From contig CAYOJJ010000001.1 in assembly GCA_964404255.1 (NCBI GenBank), forward strand, positions 243,639 to 307,638: a DNA stretch of 64,000 nucleotides. The letters are read 5' to 3'. A model generated the notes under the pieces. The model was not told the origin of the DNA. It worked only from the letters and a program-made list of their open reading frames with translations, and made no database searches. The DNA comes from an uncultured Alphaproteobacteria bacterium. GTDB lineage: Bacteria; Bacteroidota; Ignavibacteria; Palsa-1295. Both the position numbers and the translations under genes were made by a program. Below, one piece after another: positions 1-47,242 of this stretch (the stretch's first letter is position 1; each line of letters begins with the position of its first letter).

Positions 1-775
1 GTGCCTTGTATTGGTTGAAGGAAAGATCATTCGCTCGCAGGTATTATTTCATTTCGATCAAAGTACCGGCAAAATGGAAGGTAATTGGGGCAATGACGAT
101 AACCCCGGTGAGACGCGCGGCATTGCCGACGAGCGGTGGGTCTATATGCGCGAGCGCTTTACTATCGGCGGAGAAAGTAAAGCTTCCATTGAAGTGTACT
201 CCGATATTGGTAAATTCCTCGAGCCATTCTTCAGGGGTTTGCCGGTAACGATTGCCGTCAGCGGTGCACAGAATTCTATTGCCTACTATGCCGATTTTAA
301 CCGCGTAGTAAATGTCTTCGGTCTTACCGATAAACATATCGCTATGCAGGCCGTCACCAAGCGCGGCCGCATCGGCCATGAAAAGAAAGCCTCGAATGAA
401 TACCTTGCCGATGCCGGGGTACATTACTACCTGTATAATATTCGTGAAGAGCCGCCGAAGCCGCTGGCTTGGGATATGGCGGTATTCGGGCTTACTCCGT
501 TTAATCTTTTCCTAAGCGCGCGGGTAGTTAATTATGACAAGGCAATAACTACCGAACTGGAAAAGCGGTTTGCTGCGGCAGGAGTGCCCATCTCCTTACA
601 GCATTACGATGAGGTCCTGCAGAATTACCTGACGAATATTATGCCGACCCTCACACTCGCTCAGGCTGAAGAGAATTACACGCGCTTCAAGAGTTTATAC
701 TTCCGCAACCATCCCGATCCAAGCGCCGAGCAGAAGATGAAGGACTATATTGCCCAGAAAAAACAAACTCCCTAA
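1..775 (+). CDS. 5'-truncated CDS (runs off window start): C-terminal soluble domain paralogous to the C-terminus of the GT-C-like membrane protein at 775-2679
   Basis: The frame is open from position 2 with no stop before the window edge. The TTG at 11 is only an ORF-caller start. 'GIADERWVYMRERF...PFFRGLP...GAQN.IAYYA.F...GLTD..IA.Q...RGRIGHEK' is near-identical to residues ~400-634 of the next gene ('GIADERWVYMRKRL...'). The stop TAA overlaps the next ATG (TAATG). Confidence 0.6.
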   Translation, partial: CLVLVEGKIIRSQVLFHFDQSTGKMEGNWGNDDNPGETRGIADERWVYMRERFTIGGESKASIEVYSDIGKFLEPFFRGLPVTIAVSGAQNSIAYYADFNRVVNVFGLTDKHIAMQAVTKRGRIGHEKKASNEYLADAGVHYYLYNIREEPPKPLAWDMAVFGLTPFNLFLSARVVNYDKAITTELEKRFAAAGVPISLQHYDEVLQNYLTNIMPTLTLAQAEENYTRFKSLYFRNHPDPSAEQKMKDYIAQKKQTP

Positions 776-2679
776 TGGCATCGCAACGCAAAAAACAAGC
801 GCCGGTAAAAAAAGAACCAGCCACCGCCAGATCTTCTTCGATCTATTTTTATATTGGCGCGCTGGCCTCCCTGGTGATGGGATTGTATCATGCTATTAAA
901 CTGAGTTGGGTTTGTGACGATGCCTTCATTACTTTCCGCTATGTAAAAAATTTTGTAGATGGTAATGGCATCGTCTATAATATCGGAGAGCGGGTTGAAG
1001 GCTATACCCATTTTCTGTGGTTGCTTATTCTTTCAGGCTGTCAATGGCTTGGCTTCGAGCAGGTGAATGCCAGTATGGTGGTCGGTATTATCTGCTTTGC
1101 AATTCTTCTGGTTCTCTATATTGCTATTTCTGCAAAAGAAGCCCGCAGCAAGGCATCGCTTACCATCGCTTTACCGCTTGCCGCTTTACTACTATCGTTG
1201 AATTATGATATGAATGTATGGGCAAGCGGAGGACTTGAGACAAGCCTTTATACGCTTCTGCTCTCATCAGCCTTTTATGTCTGGTTCTATTCGAATCTCT
1301 CACGGCCGTTAAAACTCATGGGCGTTGGAAAGCTCCTGACGCTTGCAACATTATCACGGCCCGAGGGTGCGCTTTTTATTATACTTGCCGTAGCGCTGCT
1401 TGCCATTTATGAGTTAAGACGTAAGCACGCTCTCTCTTCGCTTATTAAAGATCTCGGGCTGATGGTGCTGCCAGTAATTGTGATCGGTATTCCATATCTT
1501 CTATGGAAGTATAATTACTATGGCGATCTGCTTCCGAATACCTTTTATACAAAGAGCGCCGGTAGTTCGTATTTCGGTCAGGGGTTCTTTTATATCTGGC
1601 TATTCTTCCGGGTATATTTCACCTGTGGAATTGCGCTACTGGCTCTCGGTGTATATTCTCTGTATCGGCGAAACAAGCATTCGGGAGTAACGACTGGACT
1701 GCCTTCCGGTTCGCCGGTCATTACCGCTATCACTGCTATTACAGTTTATCTTATTTTGTATGTAGCGCAGGTCGGCGGCGATTTCATGTTTGCCCGCTTT
1801 ATCATTCCGATACTGCCGTTGATGTATTACCTCATCGAGCGCGGAATGTGGCAATTGACACAGGAGCGCAAAGCACTCGGCCTTTCACTTTCGGCACTCT
1901 TGCTGCTTGCACTTATCGGCGAAGATCATCTGCGCGAGAATGTGCTTCTTCACGTGGATGCGAAGAGCGGTGAGCAGATGGGTAATTGGGACGATAAAGG
2001 CGGCGGAGAAACGCATGGTATTGCCGACGAGCGGTGGGTCTATATGCGAAAGCGGCTGAATCTCAATGGAGTCGAACGAAGCTCGATGGATGCCTATTCT
2101 GAGATCGGACAATTCTATGAGCCGTTCTTTCGAGGCTTGCCGATCACCATTGAAATCAATGGCGCCCAGAATATGATCGCCTATTACGCCAATTTCCGAA
2201 CAGTGATCAATGAGTACGGACTTACCGATTCTTTCATCGCGCATCAGCCTATCAACCTGCGCGGTAGGATCGGCCATGAAAAGACTGCGCCGGATTCGTA
2301 CCTCGTCAAGCGGGGTGTTCAATTTCAGCTTTTCGGTATTGCACCGAAAAAACCCGATCAGATCTCTTACGACATGGTCGTCTTCGAATTACCGTATGGG
2401 TTATTTCAGGTCGCGCGTATGATCACCTACGACAAGGAAGTAATGGCTGAAGTCCAGAAGCGGTTTAATGCTGCCGGGTTGCATCCGATCATTCCGCATT
2501 ATGAGCGCATTCTGCCAAAATACGTCCGCGATATTATGCCGAAACTGCCGCTCGAACAAGTTGTCAACGATTATGGCGGCTTCAAACAACTATATCTAAA
2601 CCGCTATAAAGACACTGCTTCCGAACATGCTATTCAGGAGTATATAGAGAAAAAACAGAAACAAACACAAGTGAAATAA
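775..2679 (+). CDS. Polytopic membrane protein, GT-C-fold glycosyltransferase-like (DD motif after TM1), with a ~250 aa C-terminal soluble domain
   Basis: 634 aa with at least 10 hydrophobic helices in the N-terminal ~370 aa. 'SWVCDDAFITFRYVKNFVDGNGIVYNIGERVEGYTHFLWLLIL' follows the first TM. 'LSRPEGALF' and 'DLLPNTFYTKSAG' are shared with the paralog at 29355-30905. The C-terminal domain is shared with the upstream partial gene. Confidence 0.7.
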   Translation: MASQRKKQAPVKKEPATARSSSIYFYIGALASLVMGLYHAIKLSWVCDDAFITFRYVKNFVDGNGIVYNIGERVEGYTHFLWLLILSGCQWLGFEQVNASMVVGIICFAILLVLYIAISAKEARSKASLTIALPLAALLLSLNYDMNVWASGGLETSLYTLLLSSAFYVWFYSNLSRPLKLMGVGKLLTLATLSRPEGALFIILAVALLAIYELRRKHALSSLIKDLGLMVLPVIVIGIPYLLWKYNYYGDLLPNTFYTKSAGSSYFGQGFFYIWLFFRVYFTCGIALLALGVYSLYRRNKHSGVTTGLPSGSPVITAITAITVYLILYVAQVGGDFMFARFIIPILPLMYYLIERGMWQLTQERKALGLSLSALLLLALIGEDHLRENVLLHVDAKSGEQMGNWDDKGGGETHGIADERWVYMRKRLNLNGVERSSMDAYSEIGQFYEPFFRGLPITIEINGAQNMIAYYANFRTVINEYGLTDSFIAHQPINLRGRIGHEKTAPDSYLVKRGVQFQLFGIAPKKPDQISYDMVVFELPYGLFQVARMITYDKEVMAEVQKRFNAAGLHPIIPHYERILPKYVRDIMPKLPLEQVVNDYGGFKQLYLNRYKDTASEHAIQEYIEKKQKQTQVK

Positions 2680-2691
2680 CAAGTGGCTATA

Positions 2692-3177
2692 TTAATGATT
2701 CGTTATAGCAAATTTACCGATCGGTAACATCTTCCCAAAATGATTGAGTTGGATATAATATACTCCAAATGCAAAACTTGATACATCGAGTGTCAGCTTT
2801 CCTGTTTCAGGTATTAAAGCCTGAAAGACTTCACGCCCTAGCATATCTAAAATATGAATGGGATGCAGCAGATCATTGGATATGACATGGAGCACTGTAG
2901 AAGCAGGATTAGGAAAAATATAGGTCGCATTAACTATCCTCTCATAGGATTCAACATGAGATAGTTTTATTGAGCCTATAGATGTAGTGGCTGTATCTGT
3001 CTTATAATAAATAACTGTACCTGAATCTTGATTAGATAATACCCCAGAACAGACATATAAGATGGTATCCTCAGCGACGGGATGAGTTACCTGCCAGAGA
3101 AATTGTGCTCTTACTCCCACGTAGCTTAGGAGTAAGAGCGCTACAATTAAAAATAATACTCTACTCTTCACAATCAA
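2692..3177 (-). CDS. Small secreted protein with T9SS C-terminal sorting domain (Por secretion tail)
   Basis: Signal peptide MIVKSRVLFLIVALLLLSYVGVRAQ. C-terminal ~80 aa 'YIFPNPASTVLHVISNDL...YYIQL' resembles type-A T9SS CTDs. The region is low-GC. Confidence 0.7.
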   Translation of the reverse strand: MIVKSRVLFLIVALLLLSYVGVRAQFLWQVTHPVAEDTILYVCSGVLSNQDSGTVIYYKTDTATTSIGSIKLSHVESYERIVNATYIFPNPASTVLHVISNDLLHPIHILDMLGREVFQALIPETGKLTLDVSSFAFGVYYIQLNHFGKMLPIGKFAITNH

Positions 3178-3766
3178 ATGTATAGCATTGATTAAGTATC
3201 AATTGTCCATGAGGTTTTAAGCAATGAGTGTTTGGACCGATTACATCATAGCCACTCCATACCACTATTGGTTGATGAGTTATTTCATCACAATCGTACA
3301 TAGAGCTTTTTTCACAATAAGTACCTTCGCTGCATTGATCATATTCATACTCATTCGGTCCTGTCATAACTAATTTCCAGCAGATGGCTCTGTAGACAGC
3401 ACTGTTTATTCTTGCGTTACACGGATCAATAGCAGCCGGAATACTCGAAAGGAAATTAACCGCGTCTTTCATTAAATCCTGAGGATCTATGGGGTCGCAA
3501 TTGGAGTTTAACGGATCCGGAATAATTTGGAAGATAAAATACTGCCATTCGTTGGTTGGGCCTGTAGTAATCTCACGTGAACAAAAATTTACTATATATC
3601 CACAACCAGTAGTGCCATACATCAGATGTCTTGAAGCTGTGGTCCATGGTACAGAAGTAGGTTCTATATCGGTCGGGCATTGAGCTTCGGCTGTTAAAGA
3701 ATAGCCGAAAGACAACACCATCGAAAATAAAACCACCAAGAAGCTGACACGAAGTAAGATTTTCAT
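3161..3766 (-). CDS. Secreted cysteine-rich protein (~14 Cys), function unknown
   Basis: Signal peptide MKILLRVSFLVVLFSMVLSFGYSLTAEA. Many cysteines in CxxxC-like spacing. Overlaps the downstream T9SS-cargo gene by 17 nt on the same strand. AT-rich coding sequence. Confidence 0.6.
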   Translation of the reverse strand: MKILLRVSFLVVLFSMVLSFGYSLTAEAQCPTDIEPTSVPWTTASRHLMYGTTGCGYIVNFCSREITTGPTNEWQYFIFQIIPDPLNSNCDPIDPQDLMKDAVNFLSSIPAAIDPCNARINSAVYRAICWKLVMTGPNEYEYDQCSEGTYCEKSSMYDCDEITHQPIVVWSGYDVIGPNTHCLKPHGQLILNQCYTFDCEE

Positions 3767-3944
3767 AATTTTAGAGAATAAGTAAGTGAAAAGTGCATGT
3801 CTATTAGAGGAACAAGACTAATATACATGTAAAAAAGCAAACAGGTCATTATTTTTTTAATTCCCCATAAGATTTATTATATTATAAACTCAGGTACGGT
3901 ATTTCGTAGTTTTGTAATAACGTTTACGAACCACTTTTTACCTT

Positions 3945-4961
3945 ATGAATCCAATCAGCGGGTTATCGATCGGTATCATCATCGCCGCCTTCTTTTTCCT
4001 GATCTTTATTTTGTATATGGTCCCTCTCGGGCTTTGGATCACGGCCATTTCTTCGGGCGTTAAAGTCCGCATTTTCGGCGATCTTGTCGGGATGCGCTTT
4101 CGTAAAGTACCGCCGGATGTAATCGTGCGCTCGAAGATTACTGCTCAAAAAGCAGGTATTCCGGTGGATATTCCGCGTCTGGAAGCTCATTATCTTGCCG
4201 GCGGAAATGTTGTTAAAGTCGTGAATGCACTCATCAGCGCTCATAAAGCGAATATCGATCTCGATTTCGACCGCGCCGCCGCTATCGATCTTGCTGGCCG
4301 CGATGTACTCGAAGCCGTAAAGCTTTCTGTTAACCCGAAGGTTATCGAAACCCCGCCGGTGGCTGCTGTTGCAAAGAATGGTATTCAGGTGACGGCTGTC
4401 GCCCGTGTTACAATCCGCGCTAATATCGAGCGCCTTGTCGGTGGTGCCGGTGAAGCAACGATCCTGGCCCGTGTTGGCGAAGGTATTGTTACCACGATCG
4501 GTTCGAGCGAATCACATAAAGAAGTTCTTGAAAGCCCGGATAACATTTCCAAGACCGTACTGAATAAAGGCCTCGATTCCGGTACAGCCTATGAAATTCT
4601 TTCGATCGATATTGCGGACGTCGATGTCGGCCAGAATATCGGCGCTAAATTGCAGAGCGATCAGGCCGAAGCCGAACTGAAAATCGCCCGTGCTAAAGCC
4701 GAAGAGCGCCGCGCTTCTGCTATCGCTTACGAGCAGGAAATGAAAGCGAAGGTACAGGAAATGCGCGCCCGCGTTGTCGAGGCCGAAGCACAGATACCGA
4801 TGGCTATTTCCGAAGCTTTTCGTGGCGGCAAGCTCGGAGTAATGGATTATTACAATATGCAGAACGTCCAATCCGATACGGCAATGCGTAAGTCGATCGC
4901 CGAAAGCTCTTCGCCGGATATGGGTGCGATGGGCGGCGTCTCGACGACCGGTAATGCTTAA
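3945..4961 (+). CDS. floA: Flotillin-like protein FloA (UPF0365/YqfA family)
   Basis: An N-terminal TM followed by '[54 protein letters not shown]...[46 protein letters not shown]' matches the FloA family almost residue for residue. Confidence 0.9.
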
Positions 4962-5026
4962 GTACACCCGCACTGATTTAATAAAAACTTAACAGCTTTT
5001 TAAAAGCTCTGAGTAGTTACGATACC

Positions 5027-5707
5027 ATGAAATATTCCTATTTCATGGTATCGCTGTTTTTATGGGTAAGCTTATGCGGCTGTACTCATCATCCGGTTAT
5101 GGCCCCAACAGTATCGGATACCACAACTCCTGTTTCATTCTCTTACCAGGTGCTTCCTATTATCGAAAGCAGTTGCGGGGTTACGACCTGCCATGACGCC
5201 GGTACTCATCAGGCAGGATTAACTCTTTCTTCGTACGAAGCGATACGGGCACTGGTGCAGCCGGGAGATACAACCGGTAGTCTTCTCTATGAACGAATCA
5301 CGGCGAGCGATACTGCTCTTCGAATGCCGAAGGAGCCGGAGCTTACTCTTACGTCATTACAAAAAGTACTCTTGCGAAACTGGATCCTTCAGGGAGCGCC
5401 GAATTCCTCTGTTCCAACCGATACGATCGATACAACGCTTATTTCTTACAGGACGACTATCGCACCCATCTTTGAAATTCATTGCAGAGGCTGCCATAAT
5501 GAATTCGATCATGCCGGGCATTTCGATGCTACCAACATCGAACACCTACGCGCCTATGCCTCCGATGGCACGCTGCTTGGTGTGATCACCCATGAAAAAG
5601 ATTACCAACCGATGCCGCGCAATGCCGATACACTCGGACCGATGCTTTCAGCGGCTGATATTGCAAGAATACAAGCCTGGATAGATCGAGGCGCTTTAGA
5701 TAATTAG
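5027..5707 (+). CDS. Lipoprotein with two tandem PSCyt1-like (planctomycete cytochrome c-type) domains
   Basis: Lipobox 'VSLCGC'. Two repeats, each with a Cys-His motif ('CGVTTCH' is CX4CH; 'CRGCH' is CXXCH) followed by 'MP...L....L....WI..GAP' / 'MPRN...L...DIARIQAWIDRGA'. Confidence 0.6.
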   Translation: MKYSYFMVSLFLWVSLCGCTHHPVMAPTVSDTTTPVSFSYQVLPIIESSCGVTTCHDAGTHQAGLTLSSYEAIRALVQPGDTTGSLLYERITASDTALRMPKEPELTLTSLQKVLLRNWILQGAPNSSVPTDTIDTTLISYRTTIAPIFEIHCRGCHNEFDHAGHFDATNIEHLRAYASDGTLLGVITHEKDYQPMPRNADTLGPMLSAADIARIQAWIDRGALDN

Positions 5708-5719
5708 CTGTGAACTCCC

Positions 5720-7267
5720 TTATTGATACAGATCATTAAGCAACTGCTTTATGATTCTCTTTTGCTCGGGGGTAATGAGATAAAGAGCATTCAAGCTACT
5801 CGTTTTAATAGGGCTGAGACTATACGTTTGTCGATAGGCATCTATTAATTCACTCGAGGAAAGAAGATACAATTCTTCGGAGGCAAATACACTATCGGCC
5901 GGATAGCTAAAGGTGTTGATCTCTTTCCAATAATAGCCCATGTGCTCTTTATCGTAGGATAAGAACCGGGCATATTTATAACGCGGCTGCAATTCCTGCA
6001 TACATCTGGCGATCGAAGGCTCCGTCGAAGGATCGATCAGCACCATAGCGCTATCGTTGCGAATGCTCTGTATCAGTTTCATCGCGTCTTCCATCTCGGC
6101 TTCACCAGCTCTTAAACGTGCATTTGTCGATGAAAGGGTGGAAACAAGACGTAATGCAGCAGTTCGGATGCGTTCGCTGCTTGTACGATTAGCTTTTGCA
6201 AAGCTCGATTCTACCGGTAGTTGATAATAAGGGACGAAAAGAAAAAGCAGCAGGCTTACCACCGCAATGCTGCTAATTGTGCGAGAGGCATTGCGATAAT
6301 TGCTTACGATTGCTCGCACCGCTATCAATAGATAAGCCGGTGCAATAAGAAGAATATATCCCTTGGCATAATGCCGAAAGACGAAAAACAGGATAGCCGG
6401 TATAACCCAAATAAGTAGGGTTATCCATTGGCTTCGAATCGAGCGAACGGTTGCCGATGGCTTATAAAGTAAGAACCCGATCGAAGGCAAAACCACCCAC
6501 AATGCTATGCTCGCAAGGGTGGCAATATTTTGAGCAATGGTAGAATCGACCGTCGTAGTATCTACGAACAATAGCCAGTATGCTTTCCAACTGCCAACAG
6601 AATAGACCAGTGGCAATAACCAGATACACCAGCCAAGCACAAATGCAGCTACCACTATGCTACCGCTGCCCACATTCAGCTTCAGCTCGATTTTCCTCTT
6701 CCATAAGAGCCACAAGACCAATGGCAACAAGAAGACAATCGAGGACGGGCGAATACCGCCTGCAAGTCCGAGCAGCAATGCACCTACTGGCAAGCTTCGC
6801 TTAGTAATGGAATAAAAGGTATTAAAAATAACGAGCGAGCATGCAGCATCATACACATACATTTCACCCGTACATCCCTGATACATAAATACCGGGCAGG
6901 CCGCTAATAACAGCATCGCATACAGGCTCCCCTCAGCGCCCCATAATAACCGATAGGTTTTCCCAATGGCTGAAACCGCTATCATCATAAATATGGTATT
7001 GATGATCAGCAACGCTGTATGAGGCGATATGGGCAGTAACCGATAAAGGATATTCCATAGCAGAACGAGAATGGGATAGCCGGGAGAATGCGGCCGATAG
7101 TTACTCAGATCGAAACCATATCGAAGCGTTTGGCAGAAGTTGGCTGCATCCATAGTGGTCACGACCTTTTCTCCGAATAAAAGAACGATGGCGATTGGAG
7201 ATAGAATAACCAGCCACCTGAGCAGAGAGCGATCGGAGAATCTATTTTCTATGGAGTTCTCTTTCAC
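5720..7267 (-). CDS. Polytopic membrane protein, PMT/ArnT-like GT-C glycosyltransferase family (GT39/83-like) with C-terminal soluble domain
   Basis: 515 aa. The N-terminal ~350 aa are multi-TM with 'LRYGFDLSNYRPHSPGYPILVLLW'. The hydrophilic C-terminal ~150 aa are distinct from the 775-2679 family. Confidence 0.5.
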   Translation of the reverse strand: MKENSIENRFSDRSLLRWLVILSPIAIVLLFGEKVVTTMDAANFCQTLRYGFDLSNYRPHSPGYPILVLLWNILYRLLPISPHTALLIINTIFMMIAVSAIGKTYRLLWGAEGSLYAMLLLAACPVFMYQGCTGEMYVYDAACSLVIFNTFYSITKRSLPVGALLLGLAGGIRPSSIVFLLPLVLWLLWKRKIELKLNVGSGSIVVAAFVLGWCIWLLPLVYSVGSWKAYWLLFVDTTTVDSTIAQNIATLASIALWVVLPSIGFLLYKPSATVRSIRSQWITLLIWVIPAILFFVFRHYAKGYILLIAPAYLLIAVRAIVSNYRNASRTISSIAVVSLLLFLFVPYYQLPVESSFAKANRTSSERIRTAALRLVSTLSSTNARLRAGEAEMEDAMKLIQSIRNDSAMVLIDPSTEPSIARCMQELQPRYKYARFLSYDKEHMGYYWKEINTFSYPADSVFASEELYLLSSSELIDAYRQTYSLSPIKTSSLNALYLITPEQKRIIKQLLNDLYQ

Positions 7268-7274
7268 CTATTGA

Positions 7275-8672
7275 TTGTTTGATACAAAGATACCACTAAC
7301 CGCAACGCTGCAGAACACTCTTATGCTTATCCGCTCTATCTCCGGGCTTCGTGGCATCACTACTTCGGAATCGGGATTGACCGATGAAGTCGTGACCAAC
7401 TACGCCGTCTCTTTTGCTACTATGGTTAATAATACCGGTAAGATCGCCATCGGCTACGATGGGCGCCAGGGTGGGAAGCGGCTCTATGATCTGGTCTGTA
7501 AGGCGATCTGCGATGCCGGCTGTTCGGTCGTTGCTCTTGGGATGGTGCCGACGCCAACGGTAATGTTCGCGGCAGAAAAGAATGCCGATATTCTCGGCGG
7601 TATCTCTGTAACGGCAAGCCACAACCCCCAGCAATGGAACGGAATGAAGTTCATCAATCACGATGGCCTCTTTCTCGATGCCGAAGAGAATAATCATTTA
7701 TGGAGTATTGTCGATGAATCGAAATGGAAACATCCGCTTCATAAAGGCGAGATGCTCGAAGGGTCTTCCGTCGTAACGGCGCATCTGGATTCGGTACTTT
7801 CTATTCCTTTTCTTGCCCTCGAAGCGATCAAAGCTCGTACCTTTCGCGTTGTACTCGATACTGTTAATGCCAGCGGTTCGTTCATTCAACAAGAGTTATT
7901 GGAAAAGCTCGGTGTGGCGGAAGTGATCGCCATAGCGTGCGACGGCTCGGGGATCTTCCCTCATATTCCCGAGCCAATTCCTGAAAATCTTTCTTCGCTG
8001 TGCCTTGCCGTGCAGGCTCATAAAGCCGATCTCGGTATTGCGATCGATCCCGATGCCGATCGCTGCGTCCTGATAACCGAAACCGGTGAACCGTTTATCG
8101 AAGAGAATACGATCGTTCTTGCCGTCGAAGAAGTATTGAGTAATAGCGAAGCCGGAGCGGCAGTAGTAGTTAATCTTTCTACCACACGCGCTGTCGAAGA
8201 TATTGCCAATGAATACAAAGCAGTAGTGCACCGCACACCGGTCGGCGAGATCAACGTAGCACAGAAGATGCTCGAAACACTCTCTACCATCGGTGGCGAA
8301 GGCTCGGGCGGGGTGATCTATCCGCGAGTACATACTGGCAGAGATTCACTCGTTGCCGTCGCACTGGCCCTCAGTAACCTTTCACGAAGCGGCATGACGC
8401 TTTCCGAAAAGAAGCGCTCCCTGCCACATTATGAAATAGTAAAAGCAAAACGCACGTTATCGGATCGCTCCGAAGTATGGCCGGCCCTGCAGGCAATTAA
8501 AGAAAAGCTACTCCCGGTTATGACCGGCTGCAACGAAGACGACGGCCTGCGTATGGAATTTGGCAACAAATGGCTCCACGTCCGCGCCTCCAACACCGAG
8601 CCCATCATGCGTTTCATAGCCGAGGCCCCGACTAAAGAAGAAGCCGAAAAACTCATCGCAGAGGCCCAATAA
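7275..8672 (+). CDS. Alpha-D-phosphohexomutase (phosphoglucosamine mutase / phosphomannomutase family)
   Basis: Active-site serine motif 'GISVTASHNPQQWNGMKF'. 'SGLRGI' near the N-terminus; the true start may be the internal Met at 7323 ('MLIRSISGLRGI'). 'DPDADR' metal-binding loop. Confidence 0.85.
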   Translation: MFDTKIPLTATLQNTLMLIRSISGLRGITTSESGLTDEVVTNYAVSFATMVNNTGKIAIGYDGRQGGKRLYDLVCKAICDAGCSVVALGMVPTPTVMFAAEKNADILGGISVTASHNPQQWNGMKFINHDGLFLDAEENNHLWSIVDESKWKHPLHKGEMLEGSSVVTAHLDSVLSIPFLALEAIKARTFRVVLDTVNASGSFIQQELLEKLGVAEVIAIACDGSGIFPHIPEPIPENLSSLCLAVQAHKADLGIAIDPDADRCVLITETGEPFIEENTIVLAVEEVLSNSEAGAAVVVNLSTTRAVEDIANEYKAVVHRTPVGEINVAQKMLETLSTIGGEGSGGVIYPRVHTGRDSLVAVALALSNLSRSGMTLSEKKRSLPHYEIVKAKRTLSDRSEVWPALQAIKEKLLPVMTGCNEDDGLRMEFGNKWLHVRASNTEPIMRFIAEAPTKEEAEKLIAEAQ

Positions 8673-8696
8673 CACCATAAAATCAGGGCTTTATTT

Positions 8697-9617
8697 TTGC
8701 CGAAACCTTTCGGGTGGTTTTTGCATATTAGAGGGTTACGCGTGAGTTTTTTACGTAATATCTTCAGACCCGGCGCCTACGAGCAGACTCCCGAGGATAA
8801 AACTATCCAGCAGGAGCTTATTTCGCACGGTCGCATTCCGGAGCACGTCGCCATTATTATGGATGGTAACGGCCGCTGGGCCGAAGAGCGCAATTTCCCG
8901 CGGGCAGTCGGCCATCAGGCCGGTATTGCAAGCGTCCGCGATATAACGCGCGCCTCGCGCGAACTCGGTATCCGCTACGTGACGCTCTATGCCTTTAGCA
9001 CCGAGAACTGGAAGCGCCCCCGCAAAGAAGTAGCCATGCTCATGCGCCTGCTTCGCAAGATGCTCCATGAAGAGCTTGAGGAAATGTGCGATAACGGGGT
9101 ACGCCTTGCCACCATCGGCCAAACCAATTCGCTGCCGAAGGAAGTACAGCAGGATCTTTTTGCCGCCATTGAAAAGACAGCCCATAATACCCGCCTGACG
9201 CTTACGCTCGCTCTTTCGTATTCGGGCCGGTGGGACCTGGTACGAGCCATGCAACTGATGGCGCTCGATATCCGGCGCGGAAAGCTTTCTCCCGAAGATG
9301 TCAACGATACGCTCGTTAAATCGTATCTTACTACTTCTACGATGCCCGATCCGGACCTGATGATCCGTACGTCCGGCGAAATGCGGCTCTCGAATTTTCT
9401 CCTCTGGGAAATGGCCTATAGCGAAATTTATGTGACGAAAGTGTTCTGGCCGGAATTCCGCCGTGAGCACTTATATGAGGCCATTCAGAATTACCAAAGC
9501 CGCGAACGCCGTTTCGGCATGACCGGCGCCCAGCTCAAGGCCAAAGACGATGTACCCCCCGAGCATTCTTCGTATGTAAAACAAATCGTCGGCGCATTGA
9601 CGAAAGGAAAGCGCTGA
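8697..9617 (+). CDS. uppS: Isoprenyl transferase (undecaprenyl diphosphate synthase)
   Basis: 'HVAIIMDGNGRWA', 'YVTLYAFSTENWKRP' and 'IRTSGEMRLSNFLLWEMAYSE' are hallmark UPP synthase motifs. The N-terminus as called is long; the real start is probably downstream. Confidence 0.9.
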   Translation: MPKPFGWFLHIRGLRVSFLRNIFRPGAYEQTPEDKTIQQELISHGRIPEHVAIIMDGNGRWAEERNFPRAVGHQAGIASVRDITRASRELGIRYVTLYAFSTENWKRPRKEVAMLMRLLRKMLHEELEEMCDNGVRLATIGQTNSLPKEVQQDLFAAIEKTAHNTRLTLTLALSYSGRWDLVRAMQLMALDIRRGKLSPEDVNDTLVKSYLTTSTMPDPDLMIRTSGEMRLSNFLLWEMAYSEIYVTKVFWPEFRREHLYEAIQNYQSRERRFGMTGAQLKAKDDVPPEHSSYVKQIVGALTKGKR

Positions 9618-9640: not shown

Positions 9641-12067
9641 ATGACTTTTTTCCGCTTGCCTAAGCCAGGTACTTTCATTGCCATCGTATTGGCCGCTCTG
9701 GTTGCTATCGCTGCCCCGCTTCGCGCCCAGGCGCCGGTAGAGCAGCAATATCTTATCATGGGTATTACGGTCGAGGGTAATCAATCCGGTAATGCCGAGA
9801 CGATCATCTCGCAGAGTATGCTGCGAAAAGGCATGAAATTCACGATGCCGAGCAGTGAGATCAGCCGGGCTATCGAGCGCTTGTGGGACCAGAATATTTA
9901 TTCCGATGTCCATATCGATGCTGCAAGGCTCGAACCACAGACCGATGGAACGATCGGCGTCTATATGACCATCAAAGTAAAAGAGTTTTCCCGGGTCGAT
10001 TCGGTGATCATCGAAGGCAACAAGCATCTTTCCAAGACCGATATTGATAAAGCCTACTCCTTCTATAAGAATGAATTTCTCCGCCCCTGGGATATCGATA
10101 ATGCCAAGCAGAAGATCAAAGCGGCCTATATTAAAGAAGGATATAATTTCGTAGAGATCACCGATGAAACGGTGCCGAAAGACGATGGTACGAATAAAGT
10201 GCTGTTATACCTGCATATCAACGAAGGCACCGAAGTAACCGTCCGTCATATCGATTTCACCGGTAACGATAAAATGTCCGCCGGCGATCTTCGCGGCGCC
10301 ATGGACGATACTCATGAAAAGCGCTGGTATAAGATCTTCACGAGCGGCTCGTTCGACGAAAAGAAGTATAATGAAGATAAGCAGAAAGTCCTGGCGCTTT
10401 ACCGATCCAAAGGCTTTCGCGATGCTACCATTCTTTCCGATACGGTATGGGTTACTAACGGTTCGGACCTGAACATCCTTATTAAAGTTTACGAAGGCGC
10501 GCAGTATTATATCCGCAATCTTGCCGTTGTCGGCAATGAAGTCTTTACCGAAGAAGAAGTCCGCCGGGCTATTGGATTTAGAAAAGGCGATCTCTATAAT
10601 CTCGAACGCTTCGATCTTAATTTAAAGGGGCCGACTCAGGATTTCAATGACGTGGGTTCGCTCTATTATGACCGCGGTTATCTCGCCAATGTCAATAAAG
10701 ATGAGACCGTTGTAGCTCCCGACTCCGTTGATATTACCGTTCGCATTCAGGAAGGCAAACGTCATTACTTCCGTAATATCGAGATTAATGGCAATACCAA
10801 GACAAAAGACTTTGTGATCCGCCGCGAGCTGTATACGCGCCCGGGCGATCCCTTCAGCCGCTCGGCGATCATCCGTTCACTTCGCCAGCTCGCGCAGCTC
10901 AATTATTTCAATCAGGAAAAATTGCAGCCGGATGTACGCCCCGTTGCCGATGCCACGCAATTCGACGTCACCTATAATCTTGAAGAAAAATCGAGCGATA
11001 CTTTTAATGCTTCGATCGGCTATGGTGGTGCGTTGGGGCTTACGGGCTCTGTCGGTGTATCGTTCAATAACTTCGATATTGCCGATCCTCTGCATGGTGG
11101 CGCTGGGCAGGTATTTTCCGTTTCGGCAGAATTCGGCCAGCAAAGCTACCGTACGCTTTCGCTAAGTTTCACGGAGCCATGGTTATTCCAGGAGCCGACC
11201 TCGTTCGGGTTTTCGATCTTCAATACGCAGAGCTTCATTTATTTCGAGCAAAAGGTTACCGGCGCTTCGATCTCCGTCGGCCGCCGTTTCCGCTGGCCGG
11301 ATGATTTCTTCCGCGGCGATTGGTCGATCTCCGGTCTTCATACTGATATCGTCAATGGTGGCGGCTACTATTCGACGGGCGTGAACGATGAGTTGAGCTT
11401 GCAACAGGTGATTTCGCGTAACTCGATTGACGATCCGCTATTCCCGGGTACGGGCTCGGAATTCTCTTTCCTGAGCAAGATCGCTTACCTTCCGCCGAAA
11501 GTGGTTGCTCCGAATATTGCAGCAAACTATTACCGCCTCGGACTTACCACCAAATTTTATAATACGCTTTTTAGCTTCAACCCGACAAATAAATTCGTTC
11601 TTGCAACCACCGGCGAGATTGGCCAGCTTGGAAATGTTTCCGGCTCGCCGTTCATTCCGCCGCAGAATAGATTTGTCATGGGTGGTTCGGGTTTAACGAG
11701 CGGCTTTGTGACGATACCGTTACGCGGCTATGACGATGCCTCTATCGGCTCGCATCATGCAACCGGTTCTACATTTGCACAAGGTGGTAATGCATATATG
11801 CGCTTTGCGGCAGAGCTTCGTTTTCAGATCGCTCGCGAACCGATCCCGATCTTCATCAATCTCTTTGGTGAAGCCGGAGATGTGTGGGAAGATTTCTCTC
11901 ACGCCGATCCCTTTAACTTAAAACGCTCGCTTGGTATCGGCGCCCGGTTACAGGTCCCGGCGGTTGGCCTTATTGGTATCGATGAAGCCTATGGCTTCGA
12001 TAACGTCATACCGTTCGGTACCCCGAGCGGCTGGCATACGCACTTCCAGTTCGGTAAGTTCTTCTAA
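9641..12067 (+). CDS. bamA: Outer membrane protein assembly factor BamA
   Basis: 808 aa with a signal peptide and repeated POTRA-like modules ('IEGN', 'FRKGD.YN'). A C-terminal beta-barrel ends in '...FQFGKFF'. Confidence 0.9.
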   Translation: MTFFRLPKPGTFIAIVLAALVAIAAPLRAQAPVEQQYLIMGITVEGNQSGNAETIISQSMLRKGMKFTMPSSEISRAIERLWDQNIYSDVHIDAARLEPQTDGTIGVYMTIKVKEFSRVDSVIIEGNKHLSKTDIDKAYSFYKNEFLRPWDIDNAKQKIKAAYIKEGYNFVEITDETVPKDDGTNKVLLYLHINEGTEVTVRHIDFTGNDKMSAGDLRGAMDDTHEKRWYKIFTSGSFDEKKYNEDKQKVLALYRSKGFRDATILSDTVWVTNGSDLNILIKVYEGAQYYIRNLAVVGNEVFTEEEVRRAIGFRKGDLYNLERFDLNLKGPTQDFNDVGSLYYDRGYLANVNKDETVVAPDSVDITVRIQEGKRHYFRNIEINGNTKTKDFVIRRELYTRPGDPFSRSAIIRSLRQLAQLNYFNQEKLQPDVRPVADATQFDVTYNLEEKSSDTFNASIGYGGALGLTGSVGVSFNNFDIADPLHGGAGQVFSVSAEFGQQSYRTLSLSFTEPWLFQEPTSFGFSIFNTQSFIYFEQKVTGASISVGRRFRWPDDFFRGDWSISGLHTDIVNGGGYYSTGVNDELSLQQVISRNSIDDPLFPGTGSEFSFLSKIAYLPPKVVAPNIAANYYRLGLTTKFYNTLFSFNPTNKFVLATTGEIGQLGNVSGSPFIPPQNRFVMGGSGLTSGFVTIPLRGYDDASIGSHHATGSTFAQGGNAYMRFAAELRFQIAREPIPIFINLFGEAGDVWEDFSHADPFNLKRSLGIGARLQVPAVGLIGIDEAYGFDNVIPFGTPSGWHTHFQFGKFF

Positions 12068-37459: not shown

Positions 37460-38686
37460 TCAATTTATCAATAATTTCCCATGCCCCATCTGCTTATTAC
37501 CCTCTGAAACTCCCTCCCAGAAATATACCCCGTTTGAAAGCGAGGCCATGGAAACTTCATGCTGGCCCTGCAGGTCTTTTTGCAGGACTTTGCGACCGAG
37601 ATTATCATAGATCGCTATCGAATTCATTCCGGCATCTTCGGCCAGGTGCAGTACCTTTCCGGCATCGATACCAGCAACCATCTCGCGCTCGGAAGAAGGG
37701 ATATAGACCGATTCCTGTGGTGTATTTATGAACAGTACTCCGTTCTGGCCACCAACGAGTTCTTTGCCATCCGGCGAAAGCGCCATCATGGTAAATACCT
37801 GGTCTTTATTATAATAATCTGTTTTCCAGCTTTCACCGCCATCGGTACTTTTTACGATGCGCCCGTTTTGATTCACGGCGTACCCCGTATTGTTATCGTG
37901 AAAATCAATAGCGATGAACACACTGCTATCAGTGCCTTCATAAACCCGTTTCCAGCTATTGCCGCCATCAACTGTTTTATAGATGGCATCCTGGCCATCG
38001 GAGCCGGCATAGAAGCCTGTGCGATCATCGAGAAACTTCAACCCCCCAATGCTTCTGGTTTGATCGAAATCTTTAAGCAGCGACCAGCTCAAACCACCAT
38101 CGGTCGATTTATAGATCTTATCGGCAAGACTGGGAATAAAACCGCCTGCGGCATAACCGGTCATCGCATTAGGAAAATTTAAGTATCGATACACCAGTGT
38201 ATCGTTACCGGTATCCGCCGCTTTCCAAAATTTTCCGGCATTAACTGTTTTAATAATAAGGCCGTTAAACCCGCAGGCAACTATAGTATCAACCCCCAGT
38301 TGCTTTACCGCATATAATCCGAGCGAAGAAGAGAAATTAATATTATTCCAATTATCGCCGCCATCGAATGACTGCATGAGCAGTGCACAACCGCAGGTCG
38401 GATCATAACCCGCTACATAGGCTACATCTTTCGAGATAGAACTGACACCGAATAAAAAATAATCGTCAACCACACCCCAAATATCCTTGAAGTGCATCCC
38501 CCCATCGGTCGATTTGAAGATAGTAACATTTCCATTTCCCCAGGCGCTCAGGTAGGCGGTCATGGTATCGCCAAAAGCTCCGCCATAATAACTTTGGGGT
38601 AACGGCGCTCCCAACGAATGCCATTGCGATTCGGCGGCAGTGCTGACAAGCAGCAGACAAAGAGAAAAAAGTACCGATGTTTTCAT
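37460..38686 (-). CDS. Secreted BNR/Asp-box repeat protein with T9SS C-terminal sorting domain
   Basis: Start at MKTSVLFSLCLLL (signal peptide). Repeated 'S(T)xDGGxxW(F)K' Asp-boxes (at least 5). The C-terminal ~80 aa look like a T9SS CTD. Confidence 0.75.
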   Translation of the reverse strand: MKTSVLFSLCLLLVSTAAESQWHSLGAPLPQSYYGGAFGDTMTAYLSAWGNGNVTIFKSTDGGMHFKDIWGVVDDYFLFGVSSISKDVAYVAGYDPTCGCALLMQSFDGGDNWNNINFSSSLGLYAVKQLGVDTIVACGFNGLIIKTVNAGKFWKAADTGNDTLVYRYLNFPNAMTGYAAGGFIPSLADKIYKSTDGGLSWSLLKDFDQTRSIGGLKFLDDRTGFYAGSDGQDAIYKTVDGGNSWKRVYEGTDSSVFIAIDFHDNNTGYAVNQNGRIVKSTDGGESWKTDYYNKDQVFTMMALSPDGKELVGGQNGVLFINTPQESVYIPSSEREMVAGIDAGKVLHLAEDAGMNSIAIYDNLGRKVLQKDLQGQHEVSMASLSNGVYFWEGVSEGNKQMGHGKLLIN

Positions 38687-38922
38687 GATGTTCCTCGTGA
38701 TGATTCGAATGATCGATGATAACCGAACGATATACACTCCCTGCCGGGGAAGCATAGGATATATCGAAACTATACCTGTTGATATACTCCACGAGGAATA
38801 ACTGGATTCAGCAACTCCTTCTCAGGAATTGCTTATCAGACAAGCACAAAAGGAATGAGCAAAAACCGATAAAAAACGAGGAATAAATCTATTGGAATCA
38901 ATATATTTCGATCCCCAATTTA

Positions 38923-43523: not shown

Positions 43524-45350
43524 ATGAATTCCTCACGTACGACCATGATGGGCATAGGCCTGATCCTGGTAGTTCTTTTCGGCTGGATGATCTGGAATCA
43601 GCCAAAGCGCGTTCCACCGCCACCGCCGAAACCTGCTGCACCGGCAGCGGTCGATACGGCGAAGCATACCGCCACCCCTGCTCAGGCGCCCGCCGAGCTT
43701 TCTTCAACTGTTTTTCAGGCCGATAGCAGCTCGGCGCCGAGTTCTAAATTCGTCGAAACGCCGCTCGTCAGCGCTGTCGTTTCCTCGCATGGTGGTAACG
43801 TCGTAAGCTGGGTCTTAAAACAGTATAAGACCTTCCAGCATACTCCGCTCGAACTTGTCGATCATAATACTCATTCCGGCGATGTGAATTTGGTCTTCGT
43901 TGCGAGCGATGGTAAGAAAGTCTCGACCAAAGACCTTCATTTCACGATCGAAGATAATAGCCAGAAAACGCTTGGCTACCATGACTCAGTAACGATCCGA
44001 ATGATGGCAACGGTCGATTCGCTCGGCTCGATCGAAAAGCTCATTCGTATTTATTCCGATAAATACCTCCTGCGCGTCGAATATAAGCTTCATAATTTAA
44101 ACTCGAAGATCGCCGGCTACCGGTATACCCTGGCTGTCGATAATCCGATACCTTATAATGAAGCTCATTCCGAAGAAGAGTCTGCTTCGGCCAATGCTGC
44201 TGTGATGACTAAATCTGGTATCGAAACGATCGATGCCAATAAGAACGATAAAGTCGAGCAGAAATCTTTTACCGGCGATGTGGAATTCGTCTCGGCTCGC
44301 ACTAAGTATTTCCTCGGTGCGCTCATCCCCCGCTATCCGCGTCCGGTGGGCAGCGATATTACCGGCACTTCCCATGCTGTTGGCGAGAATGGACGAGTGG
44401 AGAGTTACACGTTGAATGTTTCTATCCCTATCGCTTCACTGGCGAAGGATTCAATGGCAGTCGAGTATTATCTCGGCCCATTGGAATACGATCGTGTTTC
44501 TTCGATCGATCCACCACTTAACGATGTAATGGATTTCGGATGGAGATTCCTCGTTCGCCCGATAAGCGTCTATGTTCTCTTCCCATTCATTATGTGGCTC
44601 CATAGCTTTATTGCTAACTGGGGTCTGGTAATCATCGTCTTCTCGATCGCTGTAAAGCTTGCAACGATGCCCTTCTCCCGCAGCCAGATGGCCGCGATGA
44701 GAAAGATGCAGGCCTTACAGCCGCTGATGAATGACATCCGCGACAAGCACAAAGAGGATCCAAAAAAACAGCAGGAAGAAACCTTTGCGCTTTATAAAAC
44801 ATACGGCGTAAACCCTGCTGGTGGCTGCTTACCATTATTACTGCAGATGCCGGTACTCTTTGCTCTGTATGCAGTGCTTCGTAATGTTATTGAACTTCGC
44901 CAGGCGCCGTTCTTTGGCTGGATCACCGATCTTTCCTTGCCGGATGCACTTATTAAATTTGGTACACATATACCGATCCTCGGCGAACAGCTTTCCGGAC
45001 TTACGTTATTAATGGGCGCTACAATGCTCATTCAGTCGGTCTTTCAGACGACCGATCCGCGCCAGAAGACAATGGCCTACATTATGCCGATCTTCATGAC
45101 GGTGCTCTTTAATAATTTGCCGTCCGGTGTGGCATTGTACTATTTCATGTTCAACCTCTTCGGTATTGCACAGCAGCTCTACAATAAGAAATTCCTGCCG
45201 CCGCTCGATCTCGAAGAATTGAAGAAGAATGCCAAGAATAAAAAAGGCTTCATGTCGAAAATGCAGGAAATGGAAAAAACTGCCCGCGAACAGCGCCAGA
45301 ATGCAATGGCCGGAAAGACTCAGCCACCAAGCCGCAAGAAAAAAGGCTGA
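43524..45350 (+). CDS. yidC: Membrane protein insertase YidC
   Basis: N-terminal TM, a large periplasmic domain, and C-terminal 5-TM core 'WGLVIIVFSIAVKLATMPFS...GGCLPLLLQMPVLFALY' with a positively charged tail. Confidence 0.9.
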   Translation: MNSSRTTMMGIGLILVVLFGWMIWNQPKRVPPPPPKPAAPAAVDTAKHTATPAQAPAELSSTVFQADSSSAPSSKFVETPLVSAVVSSHGGNVVSWVLKQYKTFQHTPLELVDHNTHSGDVNLVFVASDGKKVSTKDLHFTIEDNSQKTLGYHDSVTIRMMATVDSLGSIEKLIRIYSDKYLLRVEYKLHNLNSKIAGYRYTLAVDNPIPYNEAHSEEESASANAAVMTKSGIETIDANKNDKVEQKSFTGDVEFVSARTKYFLGALIPRYPRPVGSDITGTSHAVGENGRVESYTLNVSIPIASLAKDSMAVEYYLGPLEYDRVSSIDPPLNDVMDFGWRFLVRPISVYVLFPFIMWLHSFIANWGLVIIVFSIAVKLATMPFSRSQMAAMRKMQALQPLMNDIRDKHKEDPKKQQEETFALYKTYGVNPAGGCLPLLLQMPVLFALYAVLRNVIELRQAPFFGWITDLSLPDALIKFGTHIPILGEQLSGLTLLMGATMLIQSVFQTTDPRQKTMAYIMPIFMTVLFNNLPSGVALYYFMFNLFGIAQQLYNKKFLPPLDLEELKKNAKNKKGFMSKMQEMEKTAREQRQNAMAGKTQPPSRKKKG

Positions 45351-45406: not shown

Positions 45407-45865
45407 CTATTTTCTATACTGGATAAGAATGCTTAGCGAGCGATCCTTCGTATATTCAAGCTCAATAGCATAAGAATTCATGGTGAAGCAAGTCTTTGTA
45501 GGTACTTTCTGTCTGACCCTCTTATAACGATTATCAAGAACCGTAACGAGAGAATCAAATAGTTGTGTTGTGGCGGAATCTGAACTCCAGGAAAAACGAT
45601 CGAGTATATTATTTTTCTCAAATACCGATAGCATATATCTCCCGCCGATTTTAAACCAACGAACCGCATCCTGAAAAAAAAGTAGGTCTGGGTTTCCCGT
45701 AGAATACCAGTGTTTTACCGTTAGAGTCGTTAAAATCTCCTTGTGCAATAGGTGTAACGGTTTCTATTTTTTTGGAATCACATCTAATGTAAAGGCTACA
45801 TCATCCGAGTACCTGTCGGAGCAAAAACATAGCGCCCCTATTAAATATATAATTACTAATTTCAT
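45407..45865 (-). pseudogene. Exported protein gene interrupted by in-frame TAG (45764-45766)
   Basis: The ATG at 45865 gives MKLVIIYLIGALCFCSDRYSDDVAFTLDVIPKK, then TAG. The same frame continues '..KPLHL(L)HKEILTTLTVKHWYSTGN...' to 45407. The called ORF 45407-45748 starts at TTG in that frame. AT-rich. Confidence 0.45.
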
Positions 45866-45946: not shown

Positions 45947-47242
45947 ATGTCGCTTACAACGCTGACTGATACGATCTGCGCGCTTTCTACCCCGCTTGGT
46001 ACGAGTGCGCTAGCAACGCTCCGGCTTTCCGGTGCGGATGCGATCGTTATTGCTGCAAAATGCTTGCAATCACCTGAGCGTCTCATTACTGCACTTGGTG
46101 GTGAATCTATTTATTCCACTATTAAAGATATTACGGGCGGACATATCGATGATGTCGTGCTTTCGGTCTGGAGAGCGCCGCGTTCGTATACCGGCGAGGA
46201 CATTGTTGAATTTCATACCCATGGTTCTCCGGTCATAACCGATCTCTTGCAAAGGCAGCTCATCGCCCATGGGGCGCGGCTTGCAGAGGCAGGCGAGTTT
46301 TCGCGCCGGGCCTTTATGAATGGTAAGCAATCGCTGCAGGAGCTGGAGCGAACGCTAATGAGGCTCGATGCATCGAGCGAGGATTCGCTTTCGAAAATAG
46401 AGCCATTATTGCAAGCAAAGTTTGATAGATTACGCGAAGTATATGACGATTGCATTTCATTACTTGCGCAGGTAAATGCAGAAATAGATTTTGGTGAATC
46501 AGATCAGGTGGAGCTTTCGGGATTCGCTGCACAGATGGGAGCCATACGCCACAAGCTTTCCGAGCTTGTGGCCCGATCGGTAAATCAGCAATTAAATAAA
46601 GGCTATTTTTCTGTTGTGCTCACAGGGCCGCCGAACGTCGGCAAGAGCAGTCTCTTTAATGCTCTTATTCGCTATGAGCGCAGCATCGTCAGCGATATTG
46701 CCGGTACGACCCGCGATTACATCGAAGCCTTTGTGATGCTTGAGGGGTTTAAAGTGAAGATCATCGATACGGCGGGGTTAAGGGACTCGGCAGATTCTAT
46801 CGAAAGCCGGGGTATCGCCCTCGGAAAAGATATTGCAGAAAAGGCTGATATTGAGCTTCGTATGACCGACCCTGCAACGAGATCCGTGCGTGCAGCAACC
46901 GGACAAATTCTTGTTCATAATAAGTGCGATCTCGATGGATTTAGCGATGGCATTGCTATATCCACGGTAACCGGTCAGGGAATGAAAGAGCTTATATCAT
47001 TGATAAAGAATGAGATAGCTGCTATTGACCAGGGACGTACCAGCTATAACATAGCTGAAACGGAACTTGCCACGATAGAATCGGTTCGGCAAAGACTCAA
47101 TAATTCATTGATAAACAAAGAGTTATCCTTAATTGCCGAAGATCTTCGCTTTTCGGCCGATGCCATTGCATCGTTGCTTGGGTTTCGCATTACAGATGAT
47201 AATTTAAATTATATTTTTACAAAAATGTGTATTGGTAAATAA
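45947..47242 (+). CDS. mnmE: tRNA modification GTPase MnmE
   Basis: N-terminal 'TICALSTPLGTSALATLRLSG'. G-domain 'GPPNVGKSSLFNAL' and 'DTAGLR'. C-terminal 'CIGK'. Confidence 0.9.
   Translation: MSLTTLTDTICALSTPLGTSALATLRLSGADAIVIAAKCLQSPERLITALGGESIYSTIKDITGGHIDDVVLSVWRAPRSYTGEDIVEFHTHGSPVITDLLQRQLIAHGARLAEAGEFSRRAFMNGKQSLQELERTLMRLDASSEDSLSKIEPLLQAKFDRLREVYDDCISLLAQVNAEIDFGESDQVELSGFAAQMGAIRHKLSELVARSVNQQLNKGYFSVVLTGPPNVGKSSLFNALIRYERSIVSDIAGTTRDYIEAFVMLEGFKVKIIDTAGLRDSADSIESRGIALGKDIAEKADIELRMTDPATRSVRAATGQILVHNKCDLDGFSDGIAISTVTGQGMKELISLIKNEIAAIDQGRTSYNIAETELATIESVRQRLNNSLINKELSLIAEDLRFSADAIASLLGFRITDDNLNYIFTKMCIGK

Follow-up and report, generated by a model that had tools for sequence, protein, structure and literature searches.

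A small AT-rich islet beside floA, read as a partly decayed copy of a conserved cassette of a disulfide-rich protein and T9SS propeller cargo

Cargo of a type IX secretion system (T9SS) is normally recognised singly, each protein by its own C-terminal domain; RgpB of P. gingivalis and ChiA of F. johnsoniae are examples of its type A cargo, and we know of no cargo class that is defined by a conserved upstream gene for a disulfide-rich partner. The T9SS moves folded proteins (PMC9251779), and type A sorting domains route proteins that have folded in the periplasm through it (PMC9251779, PMC11285876); sorting domains of foreign origin can prove incompatible across species (PMC11285876). Here we analyse an islet of about 1.27 kb (positions 2680-3944) in a 64-kb stretch of contig CAYOJJ010000001.1, the whole of which is called the window below. 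As an earlier sequence-only reading had it, the islet lies between a GT-C-like gene (775-2679, plus strand, assigned from the open reading frame (ORF) list and a domain search) and floA (3945-4961; PF12127, E 1e-157), and is filled by two overlapping minus-strand genes, gene 1 (3161-3766), for a disulfide-rich protein of 201 residues, and gene 2 (2692-3177), for a protein of 161 residues that ends in a T9SS sorting domain. We suggest, with moderate confidence, that the islet came in by horizontal transfer and that it holds a copy, partly decayed, of a conserved two-gene cassette of Ignavibacteriota/Kapabacteria-type bacteria.

With type A cargo the 161-residue protein has in common its Sec signal peptide and, at the C-terminus, a sorting domain (about 75 residues) that lies over the curated cut-offs, both for PF18962 (37.3 bits against a cut-off of 27, E 3.5e-9, residues 87-146) and for TIGR04183 (30.4 bits, cut-off 23). 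It differs in its passenger, which an internal deletion would have cut to a stub of about 60 residues, the first ten mature ones and a piece of blade and linker, with no folded domain; its full-length homologues, encoded beside relatives of gene 1 in other genomes and called partners below, have the usual signal peptide, passenger and sorting domain. Gene 2 is read from a TTG start at 3177, which makes its overlap with gene 1 17 nt, or from the alternative GTG at 3171, which makes it 11 nt. On the minus strand, 3076-3177 holds the start, the signal peptide (residues 1-24, ending in VRA before Q) and the first ten mature residues, QFLWQVTHPV, as placed by the partner alignment; 2920-3075 holds residues 35-86, a remnant of the last propeller blade and the linker before the sorting domain, aligned to about residues 326-372 of the 448-residue partner at locus L081; and 2695-2919 holds the sorting domain (residues 87-161), followed by the stop codon at 2692-2694. 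Read by eye, the signal peptide consists of MIVKSRV, a hydrophobic core and the VRA site; in the alignments it runs colinear with those of the homologues.

Both ends of the partners are matched. At the N-terminal end, phmmer aligns residues 7-54 with residues 5-53 of the L081 partner (E 2.9e-7), and the mature decapeptide is identical at seven of ten positions with that of the same partner (QFLWHVTHTD) and at six of ten with three others, the aligned mature starts including QFTWQISHPA and QFLWQIEHTD. At the C-terminal end the phmmer and blastp matches to partners have E values of 1e-28 to 1e-32: residues 41-159 match 326-446 of the L081 partner (E 3e-28), residues 68-159 match 353-444 of the L082 partner by phmmer (E 2e-32), and residues 54-158 are 52% identical to the end of that 447-residue protein by blastp (E 1e-31). 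A MAFFT alignment (A3) sets residues 1-34 against the partner N-termini and residues 35-161 against the partners' last 125 or so residues, with a main gap of 251-273 partner residues between the two blocks; overall, the window protein is 286-311 residues shorter, and the internal deletion falls after its residue 34. Neither a BNR nor a Ycf48 signal (Asp-box SxDxGxTW blades, PF14870/PF02012) appears in the 161-residue protein at E<=1. A single-sequence AlphaFold2 (AF2) model was poor, with a predicted local distance difference test score (pLDDT) below 50 for residues 31-85, which is weak evidence. Because both partner ends are matched and about 290 residues between them are missing, the 161-residue gene is best read from these alignments as a gene for a Ycf48/BNR-like propeller with a sorting domain, originally of about 450 codons, that lost those residues in frame through an internal deletion, and thus as a deletion remnant and not a designed mini-effector. 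The sequence-only reading had taken the sorting domain to be the protein's only recognisable part and the whole to be a miniature T9SS cargo; the sorting domain is confirmed, while the N-terminus and residues 35-86 turn out to be stubs of a propeller protein, and the miniature cargo gives way to a deletion.

Gene 1 has an ATG start, and the first 28 residues of its product (3683-3766, minus strand) read as a Sec signal peptide, with an MK n-region, a hydrophobic core and an A-x-A site in TAEA before Q. The mature part, residues 29-201 (3161-3682, stop codon included), begins QCPTDI and holds 12 cysteines; the sequence-only reading had counted about 14, which is the number of conserved cysteine columns in the family and not of cysteines in this member. 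That reading had also found no recognisable domain. This holds for the curated libraries, as the protein matches nothing in Pfam, NCBIfam, PHROGs or PADLOC, and a Pfam search at E<=1 over all 24 family members gave no recurrent family; it fails in that the protein does have a family, real though unannotated. When 1.84 billion representatives were scanned exhaustively with HMMER, 25 further proteins came up at E<=1e-3 (26 with the query itself), most of them 190-220 residues long, of which 23 are true relatives at 24-38% identity; the other two, P0017 and P0019, were rejected as low-complexity repeat proteins. A profile search of an indexed database added few members. The two islet proteins had looked like orphans, word-indexed searches returning each one alone, until the exhaustive HMMER scan and local comparisons overturned this; for the 161-residue protein the word-indexed search gave only itself, although homologues with 52% identity over 107 residues exist, and orphan calls from such searches alone are unsafe for short proteins.

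In the family alignment (A1, 24 sequences) the signal peptide is followed by a near-invariant Ala-Gln-Cys-Pro-Thr-Asp-Ile at the mature start. C30, P31, P36 and W41 are invariant, as are C55, C62, R64 and C90, and the family motif Q-C-P-(T/D)-D-I...P...W is present in the window protein as AEA followed by QCPTDIEPTSVPW. The framework of the alignment is its 14 conserved cysteine columns, of which the window protein keeps 12. The two that it lacks, columns 320 and 337 (S155 and S171), are also the two absent from P0025, which suggests that these positions formed one disulfide, probably lost as a pair. The AF2 model built from A1 is confident (pLDDT 89.2, predicted template modelling score 0.81) and places beta-strands at residues 42-83, a helix at 95-112 and further beta-strands at 120-176. 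A sequence-profile search of the PDB with the family gave no match, and Foldseek of the model against the PDB and BFVD gave nothing at E<=1e-3. The family of the gene 1 protein is undescribed, and the alpha+beta fold that the model confidently predicts for it is without an analogue among solved structures.

A lipoprotein reading of the A-Q-C motif was rejected, as the residue at -1 to the Cys is Gln, in the window protein as in most of the family, with no lipobox. The A-x-A site for signal peptidase I lies one residue upstream, and the predicted cleavage would expose Gln at the N-terminus. This fits the Q-rule, and the 161-residue protein and its homologues likewise begin with Gln after the signal peptide. 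The Q-rule has been reported for Bacteroidetes and for Ignavibacterium album, the latter with a Q-value of 77% (PMC5837995). One family member, P0029, is named 'Nitrosopumilaceae archaeon' at NCBI; its contig is full of genes for T9SS sorting domains and BNR proteins and is probably a mis-binned bacterial contig.

The pairing of the two genes is not arbitrary: they form a conserved cassette in Ignavibacteriota/Kapabacteria-type bacteria. In all nine informative loci a large gene on the same strand follows the family gene within 1-37 nt, and in all eight with domain calls that gene encodes a beta-propeller with PF18962, mostly 410-470 residues long; seven of the eight have a full-length partner. 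The downstream products are of 448 residues at L081, 447 and 454 at L082 and L083, 450 at L084, 462 at L166 and on a 179-kb JGI contig, 452 and 462 on a JGI contig of 3.8 kb, and 448 and 472 at the first copy in L167, while on a 1.8-kb JGI contig the downstream gene is cut by the contig end at no fewer than 326 residues (at least 326). At L165 (7001-8825) the partner is a Kelch propeller of 412 residues with a sorting domain, and the linkage would thus be to the architecture of propeller plus sorting domain, not to one homologous partner family. A second family copy in L167 (954-2948) is followed by a shortened or split partner, a 99-residue ORF and then a BNR protein of 293 residues that carries a sorting domain; decay of the propeller gene thus recurs and is not unique to the window, which keeps the pairing with its partner shortened. 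Since nothing else is conserved in these neighbourhoods, the pair behaves as a self-contained unit. At L082 an IS1595 transposase gene lies 1.3 kb upstream of the cassette. On the 179-kb contig (JGI 3300050821) and at L166, the cassette stands beside a GT2 gene and a gene for a TMEM260-like GT-C glycosyltransferase of 1058 residues; this proximity echoes the flank of the islet, and may be coincidence or a hint of surface-protein glycosylation.

The partner propellers are Asp-box proteins with weak similarity to Ycf48/HCF136 and to Sortilin-Vps10. With the Ycf48/HCF136-like BNR propellers (PF14870; PDB 2xbg, 5ojp), the full-length partners share the Asp-box repeats, as does a further gene of the window (37460-38755, discussed below). 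They differ in that their matches lie below or near the family cut-offs and that no photosystem context exists; the 161-residue protein, for its part, has no detectable repeat.

The composition of the islet sets it apart from the window, as the sequence-only reading had claimed. The G+C content (GC) of 2680-3940 is 37.1% against a window mean of 48.2% (standard deviation (SD) 2.5 points over windows of 1261 nt), which is the minimum of the 64 kb and 4.4 SD under the mean. The change is abrupt, from 46.8% in the GT-C gene to 37.2% in gene 2, 39.8% in gene 1 and 27.5% in the intergenic region 3767-3944, and then to 51.7% in floA. Codon usage, which that reading had proposed to compare with the rest of the contig, is no more uniform: GC at synonymous third positions (GC3s) is 0.287 and 0.314 in the two islet genes against 0.498 +/- 0.055 in the other 56 ORFs (z -3.9 and -3.4), the two lowest values among the 58 long ORFs of the window, and the codon-adaptation index, with the other window ORFs as reference, is also lowest of the 58 for these two (z -3.0 and -2.3). 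The tetranucleotide distance between the islet and the rest of the window is 0.506, about 7 SD off the norm set by 147 control windows of the same length (0.278 +/- 0.033, maximum 0.418), and, at a distance of 0.30-0.33, the islet's signature is nearer to L081 and L082, two cassette contigs of low GC, than to its own window. The ORFs are not a product of chance, since the longest stop-free stretch in the islet, 218 codons, exceeds those of 2000 shuffles of the islet (79 +/- 17, maximum 166) and both proteins have homologues; the window ORF list has no further ORF inside the islet.

At the left edge of the islet, a spacer of 12 nt (2680-2691) separates the stop of the GT-C gene on the plus strand from the convergent stop of gene 2, as given by the ORF coordinates and the sequence; no terminator-like hairpin was found there or elsewhere in the islet. 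The right edge is the divergent intergenic region between the cassette and floA (3767-3944, 178 nt), marked by its composition and presumed to hold the promoters of both. Matches to sigma-70-like promoters are no more frequent in the islet than in shuffles of it, and Rfam has no family match in 3767-3944 or in the rest of the islet.

The synteny of the floA region, a comparison that the sequence-only reading had also proposed, places the islet as a lineage-specific insertion. By Pfam, the window has the order GT-C, islet, floA, cytochrome c, a gene for a glycosyltransferase-like protein of 515 residues, PGM, UppS and BamA. Its FloA is 85% identical to that of the Candidatus Kapaibacterium metagenome-assembled genome (MAG) L001 and 83% to that of the Ignavibacteriae MAG L002, and the gene contexts of the members of its 90%-identity cluster, which are named Candidatus Kapabacteria bacterium and Bacteroidota bacterium, were compared. 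Of the syntenic relatives the closest is L170 (Ca. Kapabacteria bacterium, GCA_035712525.1, 45.6% GC). It has a racemase gene, a GT-C gene (621 residues, 50-54% identical), a spacer of 82 nt, floA (94.6%) and cytochrome c (70%), and then PGM (70%), Fic, UppS (83%) and BamA. From the GT-C stop to the floA start there are 82 nt both in L170 and in L171, with no islet at the junction. As the colinear GT-C and FloA alignments leave out no more than a few residues at the gene ends, the additional 1.27 kb lies exactly in this spacer; 3767-3944 shows no alignment to the 82 nt found there in L170 and L171. In L168, L169 and L001 a racemase gene is directly followed by floA, and the islet is absent beside floA in these three and in L002; tblastn of both islet proteins found no match in the six relatives (L001, L002 and L168-L171). 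A scan of species genomes based on floA gave 80 loci, none with GT-C or cytochrome c neighbours, and a metagenome scan based on the GT-C protein gave relatives at no more than 39% identity. One gain in the lineage of the window is the parsimonious reading and agrees with the composition; the deviant GC3s, codon adaptation and tetranucleotides and the absence from syntenic relatives together support the horizontal acquisition that the sequence-only reading had proposed.

We propose the following model for the cassette. The product of gene 1 would be exported by Sec and cleaved after Ala28, its exposed Gln probably turning into pyroglutamate, and the mature part of about 173 residues would be held by six disulfides. 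Gene 2 would normally encode a signal peptide, a Ycf48/BNR-like propeller (in one case Kelch) and a type A sorting domain, and its full-length product would fold in the periplasm, pass through the T9SS translocon and be released or anchored at the cell surface. As the disulfide-rich protein has a Sec signal and no sorting domain, and its gene in every case either lies just upstream of the cargo gene's start or overlaps it, the two products most likely act together outside the cytoplasm, and joint action at the cell surface is our working inference from this gene arrangement. In the likeliest arrangement the disulfide-rich subunit, which has no sorting domain of its own, would bind the propeller and be displayed or exported with it. 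In the window, about 290 codons of gene 2 would have been lost in frame, leaving the signal peptide, ten mature residues, a last-blade stub and the linker, with the sorting domain intact. The module would be crippled here, with a remnant able to export only a stub of about 60 residues; with the propeller gone, it is probably non-functional or reduced to whatever role gene 1 has by itself.

That the host uses the T9SS is suggested by a gene of native GC elsewhere in the window (37460-38755, minus strand), which encodes a Ycf48/BNR-like propeller of 431 residues with a sorting-domain match (TIGR04183 29.3 bits, above the cut-off of 23; PF18962 24.4 bits, below the cut-off of 27). It has the same architecture as the full-length partners, and no gene of the A1 family lies upstream of it.

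Several points weigh against the model of an acquired and decayed cassette. No mobility signature was found: the 64-kb window has no tRNA, and the islet borders have no integrase, transposase, insertion sequence ends or flanking direct repeats, only short repeats like those expected by chance. Phage and plasmid collections gave neither DNA nor protein matches to the islet, and no donor has been identified, the best homologues being 24-38% identical for gene 1 and 52% for the sorting-domain end of gene 2. A 21-nt near-palindromic repeat (2714-2734 and 3963-3983) was considered as a target-site duplication and judged to be chance, as its copies fall within coding motifs that are conserved, one in the sorting domain and one in FloA. 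L170 is not a close relative, with neighbouring proteins 50-83% identical, and loss in its lineage is formally possible. A function of its own is possible for the remnant, whose ORF remains intact and overlaps gene 1 at its end, and the deletion could in principle be an assembly artefact. Finally, cassette GC elsewhere tracks that of the contig, from 36% to 52%, but is 1-4 points under it in six of seven other loci, and part of the AT bias may thus be intrinsic. Compared with described small genomic islets, this one shares the abrupt drop in GC and codon usage between conserved genes and the absence from syntenic relatives, and differs in being only 1.27 kb long and in having no integrase, transposase, tRNA or flanking repeats.

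Some of these points would also fit an islet that is native, with fast-evolving, weakly expressed genes for secreted proteins that became AT-rich through relaxed codon selection and were lost in relatives. The slight AT-richness of the cassette in other genomes, the missing mobility signatures and donor, and a second small ORF of low GC in the window (45407-45748) all speak for this explanation. We nevertheless consider it unlikely: the deficit here is an exceptional 11 GC points against 1-4 at other cassette loci, the tetranucleotide distance lies past the maximum of all the control windows, and the islet is missing from six related floA loci, two of them with the same GT-C/floA junction, where parsimony calls for one gain.

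The joint export that we propose for the two products has its own main alternative, namely that the disulfide-rich protein stays in the periplasm as an inhibitor, immunity factor or chaperone of the propeller cargo, and in the window is a leftover after the deletion of the propeller; we hold this to be rather improbable. That the two genes instead encode a pair of small secreted effectors (toxin or adhesin) which is intact and functional, with the 161-residue protein a purpose-built miniature cargo, would fit two intact ORFs with signal peptides, a sorting domain that passes both Pfam and TIGRFAM cut-offs, and a gene 2 start that overlaps the end of gene 1 and so suggests co-translation, but it is quite improbable, as the 161-residue protein matches the two ends of the roughly 450-residue partners and lacks their propeller, its residues 35-86 are a blade fragment and linker for which no fold is confidently predicted, the partner is full-length at seven of the eight other loci with domain calls, and no toxin, adhesin, phage or defence family is matched by either protein. 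Annotation of the islet as an effector or toxin, which the sequence-only reading had favoured, is therefore unwarranted, the functional domain of the cargo gene being already lost. The islet illustrates instead that 'miniature' proteins with only a sorting domain can arise through in-frame deletion.

Hitch-hiker (piggy-back) export of subunits without signals is known for the twin-arginine translocation (Tat) pathway and for peroxisomal import. The cassette resembles these cases in that the export (here, sorting) signal is on one of two adjacent gene products, and that the T9SS, like Tat, carries folded proteins (PMC9251779); the likeness is an analogy only. In its most specific form, the joint-export model would make the disulfide-rich family a co-cargo of new fold and without a sorting domain, which binds its propeller partner in the periplasm and is thereby taken through the T9SS. 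We put this forward as a speculative and improbable possibility; if true, it would be the first piggy-back substrate class of the T9SS, with the conserved gene pair as its genomic signature. The literature searched holds no report of piggy-back export through the T9SS.

The islet itself is ordinary in kind, a small foreign insertion with genes for secreted proteins. What seems new here is a disulfide-rich family with a confidently predicted fold, no solved analogue and no curated family; the family and its pairing with T9SS propeller cargo appear to be undescribed in the libraries and literature searched. Though rare, the pairing is strict, and it points to a two-component surface module of Ignavibacteriota and Kapabacteria that has gone unrecognised.

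Other features of the window were observed around the islet and beyond it. The GT-C-like gene at the left flank is the second of two tandem paralogues (11-775 and 775-2679, plus strand; the first is cut by the window edge), to which the single 621-residue orthologue in L170 is 54% and 50% identical, and the pair points to a lineage-specific tandem duplication right beside the islet. Between cytochrome c and PGM, the 515-residue gene (5720-7267, minus strand), a candidate PMT_2-like membrane glycosyltransferase, has no counterpart at the same position in L170 and L171 and is thus a second lineage-specific insertion, at native GC. L169 has a gene of 65 codons and a ParE toxin gene between floA and PGM (1354-1835), and the Fic gene of L170 lies between PGM and UppS (10647-11630). 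With a different insert in each relative, the floA-PGM-UppS block (2680-9617 in the window) looks like a local hotspot for small insertions. Far from this block, the ORF at 45407-45748 (minus strand, 113 residues, no Pfam match), between yidC (43524-45350) and mnmE (45947-47242), has 39% GC, a GC3s z of -2.6 and the third-lowest codon adaptation, and could be another tiny foreign or spurious ORF.

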